From: SAR324 cluster bacterium
Lineage (GTDB): Bacteria > SAR324 > NAC60-12
Assembly (NCBI GenBank): GCA_015231825.1
Contig: JADGAV010000009.1
Location: forward strand, 147,870 to 211,869
Direction of reading: 5' to 3'
DNA length: 64,000 nt
Shown here: positions 219 to 6,081 of the stretch, piece by piece
Layout: each line of letters starts with the position of its first letter
How positions within the stretch are numbered: the first letter of the stretch is position 1
Made by a program: the position numbers and the translations under genes
The notes under the pieces: model-generated
The model's input: only the letters and a program-made list of their open reading frames with translations
The model's database searches: none
Told to the model about the DNA's origin: nothing

Positions 219-2201
219 ATGCTGGATCGCCTCCAGACAGCGTTGCAATCGGTTGACTCCATTACGGACCATTCAGAAGAATGGCTGTGGGAACTTTTGT
301 CTTCCCTTCCCCTTTCTCCCCTGTTAATTGATCGAAGTCTCTCACTGCTTAAAAAGCTCAAGCATCTCAATCTTGATTCTCCATACATTCTATCAACTCT
401 GCTTTTTTTTCTTTTTCCTGGAAAGGAAGATTTTTCGGGGCGAGAAGAAAAGATTTCTCCTTTGATTTTAAAGCACTACGAATCTCTTCAGAATATATTT
501 TCACTCGCCCCCAGTCTCCGCAGCAGAAATCAGGAAGAACTTTTTCTGAAAATGCTGATTGCGATGACAAAGGACCTGCAGCTGCTGGCCTCAATTTTGG
601 CAATTCAGCTTCAGGGTCTTGAATCAGTCGAGGATCTTTCTGAGGAAGAGCAACGCGTTTATTCACGGAAAATACTCGCAGTTTATGCCCCTTTGGCAGA
701 AAGGCTGGGAATTTTTTGGATTAAATCGGAATTGGAAGATATTGCATTGCGGTATGTAGCCCCGGAAATTTATTATGAACTGAAACAGAAAGTTGCCAAA
801 AAAAGAAATGACCGCTCCAGAATGATCGAAGAAATTACTCAAGAAATTCGACAACTGATGGAAGAAACTGAAATTCAGCATGAAGTCCAAGGGCGGTACA
901 AGCGATTTTATTCGATCTATCAAAAACTTCAGAAAGTCGATTATGACTTTGATCGTATCCAGGATTTGATTGGATTTCGAATTTTAGTCAACAATGTTCA
1001 CGATTGCTATAAGGCTTTGGGCTACGTTCATGAACGATGGTCTCCAAAACCCGGGCGTTTCAAAGACTATATTTCTAAACCAAAACCCAACCGATACCGC
1101 TCTTTGCACACAACAGTACTGGATGTGAATGGAGAATCAATTGAAATTCAAATCAGAACTCATGAAATGCATGAAGTAGCGGAGTTTGGCGTAGCGGCCC
1201 ATTGGCAGTACAAGAAAGGAATCAATCAGCACAATGGCAACTCAGAATTTTACGACAATCTCAGAAAAAAGGCCAACAATGAATTTGAAGGGGACAGACG
1301 ACCGGTAAAAAACACCGGAGATGACCTTTCCAATAAAATTGTTGGATTCAATCGAGGAAGGAAATTAGGTGGAGATAGGGAAGCATTAGAAACAGAAATT
1401 TCAAGTCCCGGCATAGATTTTCTTGAAAATAAAATTTATGTGCTGACTCCGCAGAATGATGTCATAGAATTGCCAAAAGGAGCCACTCCAGTTGACTTCG
1501 CCTATGCGATACATTCGAAAGTAGGCGATCATATCACCGCGGCAAAAGTCAATGGCAGGATATTGAAGCTTGATGATTGTCTTTCAAATGGAAATTGTGT
1601 TGAAGTGATCAATTCTCCGAAGCAAACTCCTCGATATGAGTGGCTCAAGTTTGTCAAGACCAGCAAAGCGAAAAACAAAATCCGTCATGCTGTTCGGAAA
1701 AAAGATCGCGAAACCAATAAAAAAGTAGGAATGGAATTGCTGGATAAAGAATTCAAACGACACGGTTTGAATTTCAATCGGGTGGTCAAAGACGGGACAC
1801 TTGAAAAAATGGTTCTCCAGAGAAAAAGCCATCCATTGGAGCAGACAGTCTGTGCAATCGGAGAAGGGGGAATGAAAGCCGGAGAAGTGGTTCAATGGTT
1901 TTTAGCCCCTGTAGAAGTAAAGACTGAAGAAGATAGTGCCCAGACCTCTCCGGACAAAAAAAAGCTCCGTTCTTCGATTGAAAGAAAGGGAAAATACGTC
2001 ATTGTAGAAGGAATGGACAACATGCTGGTTCGTTTTGCAAAATGCTGTTCTCCTGAAAATGGCAGTAAAATTTATGGTTATCTGACTCAGGGGAGAGGGA
2101 TAACCATCCATCGTGTGGAATGTCCTGACTTTCAACGTCTCGATGGAAGTCGTCAGATTTCAGCACATTGGGGGGAAGTGCCTGATGCAAAAACGGCCTA
2201 A
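219..2201 (+). CDS. relA: GTP pyrophosphokinase, RelA/SpoT family. RelA-like, with a short and degenerate N-terminal HD region, a synthetase domain, TGS and ACT.
   Basis: Synthetase-domain motifs DLIGFRILV...RYRSLHTTV...EIQIRTHEMHEVAEFGVAAHWQYK; TGS-like segment YVLTPQNDVIELPKGATPVDFAY; C-terminal ACT-like MLVRFAKCCSP...GITIHRVEC. The region aligning to the HD hydrolase lacks the H-D residues. Confidence 0.85.
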   Translation: MLDRLQTALQSVDSITDHSEEWLWELLSSLPLSPLLIDRSLSLLKKLKHLNLDSPYILSTLLFFLFPGKEDFSGREEKISPLILKHYESLQNIFSLAPSLRSRNQEELFLKMLIAMTKDLQLLASILAIQLQGLESVEDLSEEEQRVYSRKILAVYAPLAERLGIFWIKSELEDIALRYVAPEIYYELKQKVAKKRNDRSRMIEEITQEIRQLMEETEIQHEVQGRYKRFYSIYQKLQKVDYDFDRIQDLIGFRILVNNVHDCYKALGYVHERWSPKPGRFKDYISKPKPNRYRSLHTTVLDVNGESIEIQIRTHEMHEVAEFGVAAHWQYKKGINQHNGNSEFYDNLRKKANNEFEGDRRPVKNTGDDLSNKIVGFNRGRKLGGDREALETEISSPGIDFLENKIYVLTPQNDVIELPKGATPVDFAYAIHSKVGDHITAAKVNGRILKLDDCLSNGNCVEVINSPKQTPRYEWLKFVKTSKAKNKIRHAVRKKDRETNKKVGMELLDKEFKRHGLNFNRVVKDGTLEKMVLQRKSHPLEQTVCAIGEGGMKAGEVVQWFLAPVEVKTEEDSAQTSPDKKKLRSSIERKGKYVIVEGMDNMLVRFAKCCSPENGSKIYGYLTQGRGITIHRVECPDFQRLDGSRQISAHWGEVPDAKTA

Positions 2202-2236
2202 TCAAATATATAGAATCAATTTCCTTTTCTGCCAGT

Positions 2237-3385
2237 TCATTTTCCTTTTGGACAATAGAAAGATACTTTGTTGCCATTGAAAATAGGCTTAAACAGATCA
2301 TTCAAATCATTGTTTTCAATAATTGCCCCTGGGGAAGTCTGTTCTACGCTTCTCATTAAATATTCGCTGCCTTGATTGACAGATCCGAGTGAAGCTTTGC
2401 TTTTCTGCCGAATAGCGAGTTTAGAAAGGTTGATCAGATGCCCCTGATTTTCGAGATGGTCATGGAGTTCGAAATTGGTCCCTTTTTCCGGGTCTTCCAA
2501 AATTTCCCCGCAGGAAATAATCAGTAAAAGTACGGATCCTCCAGTTAAAAAACCTTTCAAAAAAAATCCTCGATTAGAATCTGCTCCGGACAGTTTATCT
2601 CGATAGGTTTGATAGGTTTTTGCAAGAGAAAGGAGAATGCCGACTAAAAGTACAAAAAACAAAAAACTCAGTAAAGCCTGGTCAAAAAAAGGTGGATTGC
2701 CATCAAATGGTGCTATCGTGGTGCAACCTAAATCAGGTTTGGGCTCTCTTCCCGATTTAGGATAGATTGTGACAATTCCGATGATGTCGTCTACCCCGAG
2801 ACGTAATCGCTCACGCTCTCTTCCGTATGACATGATGGAAGCCACATCTGAATGATCGTGTCCCAAACCGAAAGTGTGCCCGAGCTCATGGGTCACCGTT
2901 GATTCCAAAGATTTGGCATTCCAATCCAATCCTTCTCCAAGCCATACATCGGCTTCAACGATATGATCCCCTTCCGTTTTAAAAATAGAATACCCTGCGA
3001 AACCGGAGGGAACATCATTGCTGAAGCCAATAACATTGATGCCGTCATCATATTTAGGAGCAGATGCAATAAGTGTCGAATCTGCTTCAAAAAGCTCGGG
3101 AGAACTTTCCTGCAGATCTTCGATTTCAAAAAATGATCCTTTTACACCATTCCATTTTCCCATAGAGTGGCGAACGATGGTTGTGATTTCTTCGTCTGTC
3201 AAATCACAATTACAGCCTGAAGGATTGACAATAAATCGAATGGTATCTCCGTTGCTTACATTCCATTTGATGAATGTTCCATTGGCTGTAAACAGTGTAA
3301 ATCCGCTCAAGATAATCAAACAAAATCCAATCCAGCCAGCTTGCTTTAGAGAGATTTGGATTCTCTTTTGAAGTGCCTGTTTCAT
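2237..3385 (-). CDS. membrane-anchored zinc metalloprotease, matrixin/M10-like zincin (HEXXHXXGXXH plus Met-turn)
   Basis: HELGHTFGLGHDHSDVASIMSY motif; N-terminal signal-anchor MKQALQKRIQISLKQAGWIGFCLIILSGF; second hydrophobic segment after the catalytic domain. Start taken at the internal ATG at 3385, because the track start at 3400 is a TTG. Confidence 0.7.
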   Translation of the reverse strand: MKQALQKRIQISLKQAGWIGFCLIILSGFTLFTANGTFIKWNVSNGDTIRFIVNPSGCNCDLTDEEITTIVRHSMGKWNGVKGSFFEIEDLQESSPELFEADSTLIASAPKYDDGINVIGFSNDVPSGFAGYSIFKTEGDHIVEADVWLGEGLDWNAKSLESTVTHELGHTFGLGHDHSDVASIMSYGRERERLRLGVDDIIGIVTIYPKSGREPKPDLGCTTIAPFDGNPPFFDQALLSFLFFVLLVGILLSLAKTYQTYRDKLSGADSNRGFFLKGFLTGGSVLLLIISCGEILEDPEKGTNFELHDHLENQGHLINLSKLAIRQKSKASLGSVNQGSEYLMRSVEQTSPGAIIENNDLNDLFKPIFNGNKVSFYCPKGK

Positions 3386-3396
3386 AGCATTTTCAA

Positions 3397-3900
3397 TCAA
3401 ATTTTATAGGAAAGCAAAAACCCAAGCCATCCGACAAAAGAAGGTCCGGCGCTTTTGGAACCCAATATGGTTCCTCCTCCTCCAACGAGAGTCACGTATT
3501 GAAGCCGAAGACCAATTGAATTTGTTTTAATAAGATAAAATCCACCTCCAAAATTCAGATAGAGTGGGAGTGACACACCATGTATGGCGTAAACGTCACT
3601 TCCCAAAATTCCAAAAACTCCGTCGCTGCTCAGGGTATCAATTTTTTCAATTGAGACAAGACTCGCGCCCCCAAAAAAAGCAGTGTATTCGATATCGTTT
3701 TCCGTTTTGACTTTTAGAGTCAATCCATCGATCGGAGTTCCCGAAATATACAGAGAGTTAATTATTCCCCCAGAAGGGAAAGTGGCCGCCCCTGAAAGTT
3801 CCAACGCCTGCATGGCAGTAAAAGGGAAAAATCCCAGCAAGACGAGGAGGAACACGAAGCGATAGACTGCTGCAACATGAAAATTCATGGATTTCGTCAT
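3397..3900 (-). CDS. hypothetical secreted glycine-rich beta-strand-rich protein, paralog of the next gene
   Basis: Signal peptide MNFHVAAVYRFVFLLVLLGFFPFTAMQA. Alternating hydrophobic pattern with Gly-rich runs (GGGGTILG). Stop lies 11 bp upstream of the protease start. Start moved to an internal Met to avoid overlap with the upstream ORF. Confidence 0.4.
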   Translation of the reverse strand: MTKSMNFHVAAVYRFVFLLVLLGFFPFTAMQALELSGAATFPSGGIINSLYISGTPIDGLTLKVKTENDIEYTAFFGGASLVSIEKIDTLSSDGVFGILGSDVYAIHGVSLPLYLNFGGGFYLIKTNSIGLRLQYVTLVGGGGTILGSKSAGPSFVGWLGFLLSYKI

Positions 3901-3910
3901 ATTTGTTGTT

Positions 3911-4459
3911 TTACAGACTGATTTCCATTCCAAGATACCAAAAATTTCTGACACCGATTGCATACAATGGGTTCGCGCTGGGAATCAAGATGATAAAACT
4001 GTCCAAACCTATTTTGAAGGCAAAATCGCCGCTGATGCCGAAATTGGCCCCTGTGGTGACAACAACAGCAATGTTTGTTACTGACTCTGTATTTCCTTGG
4101 GCCTCACTGCTGGAGTTGGCCAACCCGATCCCTCCTCCGAGAAAAGTATCGACTGCGCCGCTGGAGATGGCGCGATACTGCAATGCCAACAGTCGTTCTT
4201 TTTCAAAAAATGAACCGTCGCTCTTAATTGCTCCACGGGCATAGGTCATTTCCCATCCATCCTGTGCGCCAAAGGCGATTTTTAATCCAAGAGTTGGCAA
4301 AGAAGCACTGTCTCCCCGATCAATTCCTCCGATCAGTCCGGAATAGAGAACCTCACCCGAACTGACTGCTGGCAATGCTACCAGGCTTCCTATCACCAGC
4401 ATGAGCGGCATTGCCAAAAAACCGGTTTGTCGATTCAATTTTCTGAAGGGATGGAGCAT
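3911..4459 (-). CDS. hypothetical secreted glycine-rich beta-strand-rich protein, paralog of the previous gene
   Basis: Canonical signal peptide MLHPFRKLNRQTGFLAMPLMLVIGSLVALPAVSSG. Gly-rich segments (FLGGGIGLANSS). Co-oriented and tightly spaced with the two downstream genes. Confidence 0.4.
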   Translation of the reverse strand: MLHPFRKLNRQTGFLAMPLMLVIGSLVALPAVSSGEVLYSGLIGGIDRGDSASLPTLGLKIAFGAQDGWEMTYARGAIKSDGSFFEKERLLALQYRAISSGAVDTFLGGGIGLANSSSEAQGNTESVTNIAVVVTTGANFGISGDFAFKIGLDSFIILIPSANPLYAIGVRNFWYLGMEISL

Positions 4460-4563
4460 ATCGGCAAAGGTGGATTCAAAAGTACAAAAGCAAAAACTTA
4501 GAGTGAGAAGCTCATTAAAAGGTTTAGTCATTATTGAAAGAACGACGGTAAATAATTAATAAG

Positions 4564-6081
4564 TCACATTGAAGAAGACATCATGGTCATTGCCAGTTCC
4601 GACAAGTCGATCTTTATTTTATATTGTCGCAGCAGGCCGCCAATCACAATCAGCACCCGTGCCATCAGGACAAAATTGTCAGGTATTTTGACTTTTGCCT
4701 GACGCATCACTTCCAGGTAATATTGCATCTTTGTTAAATCATGATATTCCCCGGTTTTTCCCTGGGATAGAAGCTCTTTCAATTTTTCCGGAAAAGGAGA
4801 ATCAAATCCTGCTTTTTGAAGAATCGTGTCAAACCCTTCAAACTGCTCCAACAGCAAGGCAGTTAACACTTCTCGATAGCTGCTCGTCTCTCGACTGGTC
4901 AGCCTGGCAACGGCACCAAAATCCAGGAGTGCGATTTTTCCGCGGGGGGTAACAAAAAAATTGCCGGGATGAGGGTCTGCGTGAAACAATCCGCTCATGA
5001 AAATTTGTTTTAAAAAACTATGCACCAACTCTTTGAGCAAAGATTCAGCGGCTGTCGGTACTTCCTTGAGAAACTGCCGAATCGGCATTCCTTCGATAAA
5101 ATACATTCCCATAGTGCGAGTCGTCAGCAGCTCTTTCACTAAAATGGGATACTCCCATTGCTGGTTTTGATAGGTGCCAAAAAACTGAGTGAGGTTGCTG
5201 GCTTCATGGTAATAATCCAACTCCTTAAGAATGCTTTTTGACAGTTCCCTTACAATTTGCTCCAGGTCAAGGGTTTCAACCTGGCGGTTGAAAATTTGAG
5301 CAACGGATTCAAAAAATTTGAGATCCGCCTGGATCAACTTTGAAACTCCAGGAATCTGAATTTTAATGGCGATTTCCGGTCCGTGAGACAACTGAGCCTT
5401 GTGAACCTGTCCAATGGAAGCGGTTGCCAATGGAACCGGATCAATAGTAGCGATCAGATCTTGCCATCGTGGACCAAAGGACTCTTCAAGAACCGGGACC
5501 ATCCTTTGCCATTCAATAGGGTTTGCCTGATCCTGAAGCTGAGCGAGTACATCGCTGTAAACTTGAGGAAGTCCGCTCGCGTGGCAGCTGATGAATTGTG
5601 CTGCCTTGACCCATGCCCCTCCCTGTTTTTTGCACAAAGCCGCAAGTTCATTCGCATTTTGCCGATGCATTTCCTCTTCACGCATTGTGTATTCAGATTT
5701 TGACAATGCAACGTTTCGGACTTTGAAAATTTGATGGCGCCCCATCAATTTCATGATTGTTTGGATCGCTTCAATGTAGCGGCCGCTGTTTGCATAGGTT
5801 TCGGAAATCGTTTTCCAACCTCCCCAGATACGTTCTTTCAACTCCTGCAGCTCTTCCATTGTCTCAAATGTCTTCGGAGAGTAGGACTGAAAGGAGCTTA
5901 AAATATCGGAAATTTGTTGATCGAACTGCTGCCAGAATGACGAGGAGTTCTGCCCTTCTTGTTTTTCCTTTTCAGAAGAAGGCGAAATCTCTTTCGGCAG
6001 GTCATTTCGCAATTCATCTGCCTTACTGATGAGGTCCGAAAAGAGCTGTTTTGATTTTTTTACGATTTGTTCAGAATCCAT
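4564..6081 (-). CDS. ubiB: UbiB/ABC1 atypical protein kinase family (AarF domain)
   Basis: ATASIGQVHKAQL, IAIKIQIPGV, HADPHPGNFFV and LLDFGAV motifs typical of the ABC1/UbiB family. Confidence 0.85.
   Translation of the reverse strand: MDSEQIVKKSKQLFSDLISKADELRNDLPKEISPSSEKEKQEGQNSSSFWQQFDQQISDILSSFQSYSPKTFETMEELQELKERIWGGWKTISETYANSGRYIEAIQTIMKLMGRHQIFKVRNVALSKSEYTMREEEMHRQNANELAALCKKQGGAWVKAAQFISCHASGLPQVYSDVLAQLQDQANPIEWQRMVPVLEESFGPRWQDLIATIDPVPLATASIGQVHKAQLSHGPEIAIKIQIPGVSKLIQADLKFFESVAQIFNRQVETLDLEQIVRELSKSILKELDYYHEASNLTQFFGTYQNQQWEYPILVKELLTTRTMGMYFIEGMPIRQFLKEVPTAAESLLKELVHSFLKQIFMSGLFHADPHPGNFFVTPRGKIALLDFGAVARLTSRETSSYREVLTALLLEQFEGFDTILQKAGFDSPFPEKLKELLSQGKTGEYHDLTKMQYYLEVMRQAKVKIPDNFVLMARVLIVIGGLLRQYKIKIDLSELAMTMMSSSM

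Follow-up and report, generated by a model that had tools for sequence, protein, structure and literature searches.

A conserved three-gene cassette of SAR324 bacteria combines a predicted membrane-tethered, matrixin-like metalloprotease with two small putative outer-membrane proteins

Cysteine-containing C-terminal sorting signals share a tripartite design of a Cys motif, a helix and a cluster of basic residues (10.1101/2023.06.07.544157; PMC11980579), and in Myxococcus the signal known as MYXO-CTERM is cleaved by an intramembrane protease, the protein being anchored at the cell surface with a lipid predicted on its invariant Cys (PMC11980579; 10.1101/2023.06.07.544157). The MYXO-CTERM surface protein TraA of Myxococcus xanthus acts in one pathway with TraB, an envelope partner encoded in the same operon (PMC3325183; PMC11980579). 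Here we describe a locus that invites comparison with this pair: three tightly packed minus-strand genes, A, B and C, found within positions 2237-4531 of a 64,000-nucleotide stretch (the window; assembly GCA_015231825.1, contig JADGAV010000009.1, positions 147,870 to 211,869) from the metagenome-assembled genome (MAG) of a SAR324 cluster bacterium. Genes A and B encode small, probably exported, glycine-rich proteins, and gene C encodes a predicted zinc metalloprotease. We propose, with a probability of about 0.45 and thus a little short of even odds, that C is a tethered protease with A and B as its outer-membrane partners, in the way that TraB is a partner of TraA.

The likeness to TraA-TraB lies in architecture and gene organization. 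The tripartite signature (invariant Cys, hydrophobic helix and basic cluster) is present in C and in a family of shorter relatives of C, and these short relatives, like TraA, combine a Cys-helix-basic tail with envelope or outer-membrane partners encoded in a tight operon. On the other hand, TraA is an adhesin or receptor, whereas C is predicted to be a protease; TraB is a protein of ~500 amino acids with an OmpA-like peptidoglycan-binding domain, whereas A and B appear to be barrels of ~135-150 amino acids; the two systems have no sequence relationship; the tail is internal in the SAR324 protein; and no myxosortase was identified in the trio flanks or among ten window open reading frames (ORFs). 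Nearer to C itself are the myxosortase-dependent metalloproteases of NCBIfam model NF041905 (the MXAN_2677/MXAN_2678 family), which, like C and its relatives, join a metzincin core to a Cys-type sorting tail. This model was the top NCBIfam match of C and of all 10 relatives scanned, but with scores of 20-39 bits (cutoff, 250) and an alignment confined to the core between HExxH and the Met-turn, and C is not a member. The initial annotation did not recognize the trio as a described system, and we likewise found no description of it in Pfam, NCBIfam, the anti-phage defence models of PADLOC (zero matches) or the literature, where searches on MXAN_2677/2678 and on SAR324 metalloproteases in combination with the outer membrane also returned nothing. 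The kinds of components are already known (metzincins, small outer-membrane barrels, tripartite sorting tails and lipoboxes); the families of A, B and the two small proteins encoded beside the short relatives (up1 and up2, below) are uncurated, the tail lies outside curated models, and the most unusual feature is an internalized tail followed by an internal lipobox.

The maximal minus-strand ORFs extend over 3911-4531 (A), 3397-3963 (B) and 2237-3400 (C). Start codons were picked from the sequence and from a comparison with orthologue N-termini, and those best supported are ATG codons at 4459, 3900 and 3385, giving precursors of 182 amino acids for A (3911..4459) and 167 amino acids for B (3397..3900) and a protein of 382 amino acids for C (2237..3385). 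Other possible starts lie at 4531 (the annotated one) or 4411 for A and, for C, at a TTG at 3400 that overlaps the B stop codon. The tight, co-directional packing noted in the initial annotation is thereby confirmed, with a spacer of 10 bp between A and B (A stop at 3911, B start at 3900) and of 11 bp between B and C (B stop at 3397, C start at 3385). Since conserved homologues exist for all three genes, they are not chance ORFs, a doubt that had been raised for the two small ones.

Judged from its sequence, C is a matrixin-like zinc metalloprotease of the metzincin clan and a predicted endopeptidase. The zincin with HEXXHXXGXXH and Met-turn that had been read from the letters alone is supported by the Pfam family PF00413 (Peptidase_M10), which matches residues 67-213 at 33.8 bits (cutoff, 24) over profile positions 18-158 of 159. 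The catalytic domain (2747..3283, minus strand; residues ~35-213) contains a CxC motif (C58, C60), the zinc site at 2855-2890 (HELGHTFGLGHD; motif HELGHTFGLGH of the form HExxHxxGxxH, with H166, H170, G173 and H176 at 2890-2858 and the His166 codon at 2890-2888) and the Met-turn SIM185SY (M185 codon at 2831-2833). In five aligned orthologues the zinc motif, the Met-turn SIMSY and the terminal helix L..DDI.GI..IY are invariant. The best sequence matches in the PDB are the catalytic domains of the matrix metalloproteinases (MMPs) MMP-7, -12, -16 and -1, with which C shares the zinc signature, the Met-turn, an N-terminal strand region resembling KW...LTYRI (KW at residues 40-41) and the L..DDI.GI..IY helix. 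Unlike the MMPs, C has an Asp after the third His (HD, as in adamalysins), a serralysin-like SxMSY Met-turn, a predicted membrane tether and an extra C-terminal module, and it has neither a prodomain nor the PRCGxPD cysteine switch; a bacterial MMP-like enzyme is exemplified by karilysin. The prodomain is judged to be absent because the mature N terminus of the MMPs aligns directly after the N-terminal hydrophobic segment of C (3284..3343, minus strand; residues 15-34), a candidate signal peptide or signal anchor: the MMP-aligned sequence begins within ~10 residues of this segment, and residue 21 of the MMP-16 catalytic domain is aligned to C residue 63.

A can be confidently predicted to form an outer-membrane beta-barrel of eight strands, and its family is uncurated. 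AlphaFold2, run on the A family alignment, returned eight long antiparallel strands with a predicted local distance difference test score (pLDDT) of 77 and a predicted template-modelling score (pTM) of 0.70, and Foldseek matched this model to the transmembrane domain of OmpA (OmpA-TM), Ail, NspA, the N-terminal domain of OprF (OprF-N) and OmpX (PDB entries 9fzd, 1bxw, 3qrc, 1p4t, 4rlc and 1qj9; E values of 4e-6 to 1e-4, TM-scores of 0.5-0.6). A resembles these proteins in predicted fold, in size, in carrying a signal peptide and in its beta-signal-like C-terminal strand, the family ending in an amphipathic last strand of the form ...LG.E(I/V).(L/F/I). A and B nevertheless differ from them in having no membership of their sequence families and in being always linked to a protease, and the TM-scores of A reach only 0.5-0.6. 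Neither small protein matched an outer-membrane protein (OMP) family in Pfam or NCBIfam at E values up to 1 or any PADLOC model, and the family profiles of both found no PDB sequence at E values up to 10. The concern that the small proteins might be well-known OMPs unlinked to the protease did not materialize, as neither family was seen without it in the loci examined.

The two proteins also have in common features of the kind by which they were first noticed, namely N-terminal signal peptides, evident to the eye and in hydropathy as a basic N-region followed by a hydrophobic core and a cleavage motif of small residues, and a Gly-rich (~13-14%), beta-strand-like composition with amphipathic C-terminal strands. 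The signal peptide of A (4355..4459, minus strand; MLHPFRKLNRQTGFLAMPLMLVIGSLVALPAVSSG) would be cleaved before Glu, in an alignment column where orthologues show ...QA|EI or ...SA|EF, and that of B (3805..3900, minus strand; MTKSMNFHVAAVYRFVFLLVLLGFFPFTAMQA) is predicted from its A-x-A pattern to be cleaved before LE. Both families are extremely narrow: among 5.8 billion proteins, A has homologues in 8 clusters, 54-73% identical if the window's own record is excepted, and B has 10 homologues, all labelled SAR324 wherever any label exists.

The most conserved segment of A is its first loop, between strands 1 and 2, which carries the invariant motif GGIDRGDSASLPT. When the invariant residues of the family were mapped onto the predicted strands of the AlphaFold2 model, 9 of the 14 residues of this loop (26-39 of the aligned query) proved invariant, compared with ~32% overall, and under the canonical topology of the 8-stranded fold the loop would face outward. 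Numbered from the start at 4459, residues 35-47 (window 4319-4357) include an invariant D-R-G-D(-S) that is RGDS-like and may be coincidental; the aligned stretch of the up2 family reads EEGDDRxxPA.

B is probably a second small, Gly-rich 8-stranded outer-membrane barrel, an assignment that is tentative and of lower confidence than that of A. Its AlphaFold2 model also has 8 strands (pLDDT, 62.5), and OmpA-TM and Ail again lead the Foldseek matches, here weakly (E values of 8e-3 or worse, ~1e-2; TM-score of ~0.37), so that a fold comparison of the kind suggested at the outset supports a barrel for A and returns the same matches, at a weak level, for B. The B family ends in ...LL.S(Y/L)(K/R/Q)(F/L/I), as in SYKI, SYRF or SLKF. 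A and B had been described as paralogues resembling each other, which our comparisons do not uphold: BLASTP aligned them at an E value of 2.9 and profile-profile alignment with hhalign gave probabilities of 0.5% and 0.4%; therefore the term "paralogous" is unsupported, descent of the two from one ancestral gene was rejected, and what they may share is at most a fold class.

The linkage of the three genes is strongly conserved. A, B and the protease occur in the same order and on one strand in each of the 7 distinct SAR324-type loci for which sufficient context is available (the window, L001, L002 with its equivalents L003 and L004, L005, L007 with its equivalent L008, L012 and L013), including L012, in which the protease is 48% identical and the divergent A/B pair was confirmed by hidden Markov model (HMM). 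Genomes carrying the trio include the SAR324 MAGs GCA_028281495, GCA_002753255 and GCA_028282505. The flanks change from locus to locus: the gene upstream of the trio encodes an ABC1 kinase, UbiA, Uma2 or a histidine kinase, and that downstream encodes RelA in most cases and, in L002, a giant sensor kinase of 1584 amino acids. The conservation of the unit across genomes, proposed at the outset as a check, is thus observed, and it extends beyond SAR324, as follows.

An exhaustive HMMER search with C recovered 655 relatives at E values up to 1e-3, among which two are full-length proteins with the C-terminal extension of C, accompanied by fragments. The next tier is a large set of proteins of 245-300 amino acids (E values of ~1e-19 to 1e-8), one of them labelled "M57 family metalloprotease [Oligoflexales bacterium]", in which a signal peptide precedes an M10 domain with HExGHCxGLGHxH, an invariant Cys and, after 10-20 residues, a Leu-rich helix and a basic C terminus; in the family alignment C220, P241 within the helix and the basic end are conserved, the first two invariantly. 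Together, two look-ups of genomic context and a scan of metagenomes provided 52 loci encoding such short proteases, 50 of them metagenomic, and among the 29 metagenomic loci with at least 950 bp of upstream sequence an HMM-based count found two tightly packed small genes on the same strand before the protease in 25; L014 has the same arrangement. The first small gene, up2, encodes 172-195 amino acids with the motifs EEGDDRxxPA, YYGRxxGP and WxSHxYxAG and the ending ARKQxxSLxxGVxF/L, and the second, up1, encodes 143-165 amino acids with GPPSxGxGGSNPxxIPP and the ending SPYAxRxGxxxxF/L. Neither belongs to a Pfam or NCBIfam family, and they are unrelated to each other (hhalign, 2-5%). On the strength of the profile comparison, A is homologous to up2: hhalign aligned the two families over 164 columns with a probability of 95% and an E value of 2.6e-8 (91% on the mature parts), and the up2 HMM recovered the SAR324 A proteins at E values of 1e-6 to 1e-4. 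Homology of B and up1 is unsupported once the signal peptides are removed (hhalign, 0.6%, range 0.6-24%; HMM search negative), and B is only the positional analogue of up1. The three-gene unit is real, and its linkage is strongly conserved over changing contexts in at least two labelled lineages, SAR324 and Oligoflexales.

The four exceptional loci among the 29 are those with the most divergent proteases (33-35% identity). Three of them, L057, L059 and L061, are devoid of up1 and up2 and have, upstream of the protease (~1350-3450), an OMP-like ORF of 411-437 amino acids ending in LKYQF or LKFQF, preceded by an ORF of 252-276 amino acids of no assigned family; this arrangement may be a variant cassette. 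Separately, L015 has a single OMP-like gene of 189 amino acids upstream of its short protease. There (L015:1252-6771, on a 2.45-Mb contig from JGI, the Joint Genome Institute) the Cys-tailed M10 protease follows four genes with matches to the Pfam families MotA_ExbB, ExbD, TonB_2 and TolB_N, a Tol-Pal-like cluster, and the 189-amino-acid gene, a weak match to the AcfA family, sits between cluster and protease in the usual position of pal. A Pfam survey of 64 flanking ORFs revealed no fourth recurrent component, the flanks being heterogeneous housekeeping genes.

What sets the SAR324 protease apart from its short relatives is the region behind the catalytic domain. Hydropathy reveals three hydrophobic segments in C, at residues 15-39, 231-259 and 273-296, one more than the initial annotation had, with two segments rather than one behind the catalytic domain. 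The first of these two belongs to a module resembling an internalized sorting tail (2615..2725, minus strand), made up of Cys221, PPFFDQA, a transmembrane helix at ~236-257 and a Lys/Arg-rich stretch; Cys221 (codon 2723-2725) lies in LGCTT and is invariant in the orthologues, where the motif is LGC(T/S)T. This second hydrophobic segment of C corresponds to the C-terminal tail of the relatives of ~255 amino acids, which in phmmer align through it to their own C termini. The window's tail segment gave no match to curated models of C-terminal sorting signals.

The third hydrophobic segment resembles a lipoprotein signal (2510..2557, minus strand), with K277-G, a 13-residue hydrophobic run and the lipobox I-I-S-C292 (Cys292 codon at 2510-2512). 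The lipobox reads IISC, VAAC, MAAC, MVAC and IVAC in five orthologues (pattern [IVM][IAV][SA]C), a like pattern is found in P0019, P0020 and P0027, and an invariant Lys-Gly opens the segment in every orthologue. Residues 277-292 thus have the positive residue, hydrophobic run and lipobox of a signal for Lgt and Lsp; unlike lipoprotein signals, which are N-terminal by definition, they are situated ~290 residues into the protein (the Cys being residue 292 of 382) and behind two other hydrophobic segments. The remainder of C (2240..2509, minus strand; residues 293-382) is a domain of ~90 amino acids comprising a variable linker and a conserved end, SPGAII.GG..F...KP.I.G(D/N)K.(S/T)F(Y/F)C378P.G, which has no match in Pfam or NCBIfam and is absent from the ~255-amino-acid relatives. 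The CxC motif (C58, C60) and the near-C-terminal Cys378 occur solely alongside this extension; where the extended proteases have these cysteines, the short ones have an invariant DCD and the Cys of HExGHC, which suggests that the two subfamilies have differing disulfide or metal arrangements.

Two other origins of the C-terminal part were considered and rejected. An in-frame GAGGA-N6-TTG at window positions 2558-2575 (minus strand; C codons 271-276), just before the lipobox-like segment, would allow a lipoprotein-like C-terminal product to be translated on its own in the window genome, but an in-frame start at a consistent position is not conserved in four orthologues, which speaks against a general mechanism of this kind. 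Derivation of the extension from a lipoprotein gene downstream of the short proteases finds no counterpart either, none being conserved at those loci.

The proposal that A and B are partners of a tethered protease can be elaborated as follows: (i) the trio would constitute a self-contained, conserved cell-envelope cassette, in which A and B are exported by Sec and then inserted into the outer membrane; (ii) the catalytic domain of C, once exported, would be held at the membrane by the Cys motif, transmembrane helix and basic cluster; (iii) A and B would provide a platform that docks, anchors or regulates C, probably through the conserved first loop of A, the three proteins together forming a proteolytic complex of the outer membrane or cell surface; and (iv) the ancestral protease would have been a tail-sorted enzyme anchored in the envelope or at the surface, whose sorting tail became internal in the SAR324 lineage and was then followed by a lipoprotein-type signal and the ~90-amino-acid domain with its near-end cysteine. 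This domain probably docks back onto the catalytic domain as a tethered element with a regulatory or structural role, because it co-occurs with the catalytic-domain CxC that the short family lacks. Localization, any processing, the physical interaction of A and B with C and the part played by the C-terminal domain are all inferred.

Several observations weigh against this proposal: (i) ~125 residues follow the tail-like helix in C and the tail is C-terminal solely in the ~255-amino-acid relatives, so that in SAR324 it may act as a mere arm of an inner-membrane helical hairpin, and C may be a protease of the inner membrane facing the periplasm; (ii) ten tails compared with the models TIGR03901 (MYXO-CTERM), JDVT-, Synerg- and CGP-CTERM scored at best 14.7 bits, in a single tail (TIGR03901; cutoff, 20); (iii) neither a sorting protease of the CPBP type nor type II secretion genes were found among ten window ORFs of 244-285 amino acids and in the trio flanks; (iv) the structure model of B is of low confidence and homology of B to up1 could not be demonstrated; and (v) the order of the genes, with the small ones first, fits a role of A and B as substrates equally well.

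This last reading, in which C cleaves or matures A and/or B by loop trimming or removal of a segment and the genes travel together for that reason, was put forward in the initial annotation and appears unlikely to us, though it is the most probable of the alternatives. The genes strictly keep both their linkage and their order, the strongly conserved loop of A could be a site of recognition or cleavage, and a protease made without a prodomain would be active once exported. Against this, the mature A and B are small and almost entirely predicted strand, leaving little to remove, neither family has a visible conserved extension of the propeptide kind, and no 8-stranded barrel is known to us to require a protease of its own. 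A relationship of partner or anchor is at least as likely as one of substrate.

A more elaborate possibility, confined to the SAR324 proteins and in our estimation improbable, is that C is a two-in-one precursor whose tandem sorting signals yield two lipid-anchored products on a platform of two barrels: a protease released through its tail and, after processing by Lgt and Lsp, a lipoprotein of ~90 amino acids that would regulate or inhibit it, perhaps via the near-C-terminal cysteine. In broader form, the trio would represent a new, widespread outer-membrane protease system with an unclassified Cys-type sorting signal. Lipobox, Lys-Gly and hydrophobic run are kept in every extension-bearing protein, the Cys221 motif is invariant, and CxC and the C-terminal Cys appear solely with the extension; on the other hand, lipoprotein signals are N-terminal and we know of no precedent for the use of an internal one, the search of the trio flanks and the ten window ORFs for a sorting protease was negative here too, and the same features fit an unprocessed helical hairpin with another role for the conserved Cys.

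There is decidedly little to recommend the view that A, B and C are independent envelope proteins that are merely co-transcribed, that is, two generic OMPs and a housekeeping metalloprotease of the periplasm or inner membrane. The cassette is indeed placed among housekeeping genes, but the A and B families were never met apart from the protease, they are very narrow (8 and 10 members, as given above), and the trio persists over SAR324 and an Oligoflexales-labelled clade despite the change of flanks. The least probable view takes A and B for secreted or amyloid-like proteins (of the curli or Fap kind) rather than integral barrels, an option left open in the initial annotation to which the Gly- and beta-rich composition, the signal peptides and the middling confidence of the B model lend some colour. 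Against it stand the structure predictions, which show closed barrels of eight strands with matches to OmpA-TM, OmpX and Ail, the beta-signal-like amphipathic C-terminal strands ending in F, L or I, the lack of sequence repeats such as those of curli or Fap subunits, and the absence of secretion or nucleator genes from the scanned flanks.

Should A and B indeed be partners of a tethered C, the trio would be a compact, conserved module that places an MMP-like protease at the envelope together with two private outer-membrane proteins, in some uncultured bacteria, among them SAR324 and at least one lineage labelled Oligoflexales. It would add two uncurated families of small OMPs, as well as an apparently unclassified Cys-containing C-terminal sorting signal to the group of the MYXO-CTERM type, and its SAR324 version would be a natural experiment in the internalization of a tail and the lipobox that follows it. 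SAR324 is an abundant lineage of the deep ocean, and a surface protease complex would bear on the use of proteins and peptides by its cells.

With regard to the wider locus, protein A is 100% identical to an NCBI record with the locus tag HQM13_10720 and protein B to one with the locus tag HQM13_10715, from the SAR324 cluster MAG that is the source of the window; exact-sequence look-ups for the window proteins B, C, the ABC1 kinase and P0001 gave no match. Promoter and terminator scans of the trio region did no better than on shuffled sequence. Scanning with patterns derived from the SAR324 protease alignment retrieved 3 SAR324 MAGs from the genome collection and none from the metagenome collection, the matches being few because the patterns are very specific.

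In the window, the trio is preceded by an ABC1/UbiB-type kinase gene (4564-6081, minus strand) and followed by a convergent RelA/SpoT gene (219-2201, plus strand). The convergent RelA/SpoT gene also lies downstream in L001, L005, L007 and L012 and the ABC1/UbiB-type kinase gene upstream in L012; L002 does not share this local synteny. Finally, in the SAR324 MAG GCA_002753255 (L005:8525-9196) 63 bp are perfectly duplicated in tandem (2.1 copies) across the 3' end of A and its stop codon, and ~550 bp of non-coding DNA separates the duplicated end from B. A different assembly has its A-bearing contig (L006) ending just past A and a second contig (L010) starting ~640 bp upstream of the protease match; the trio therefore tolerates insertion between A and B.

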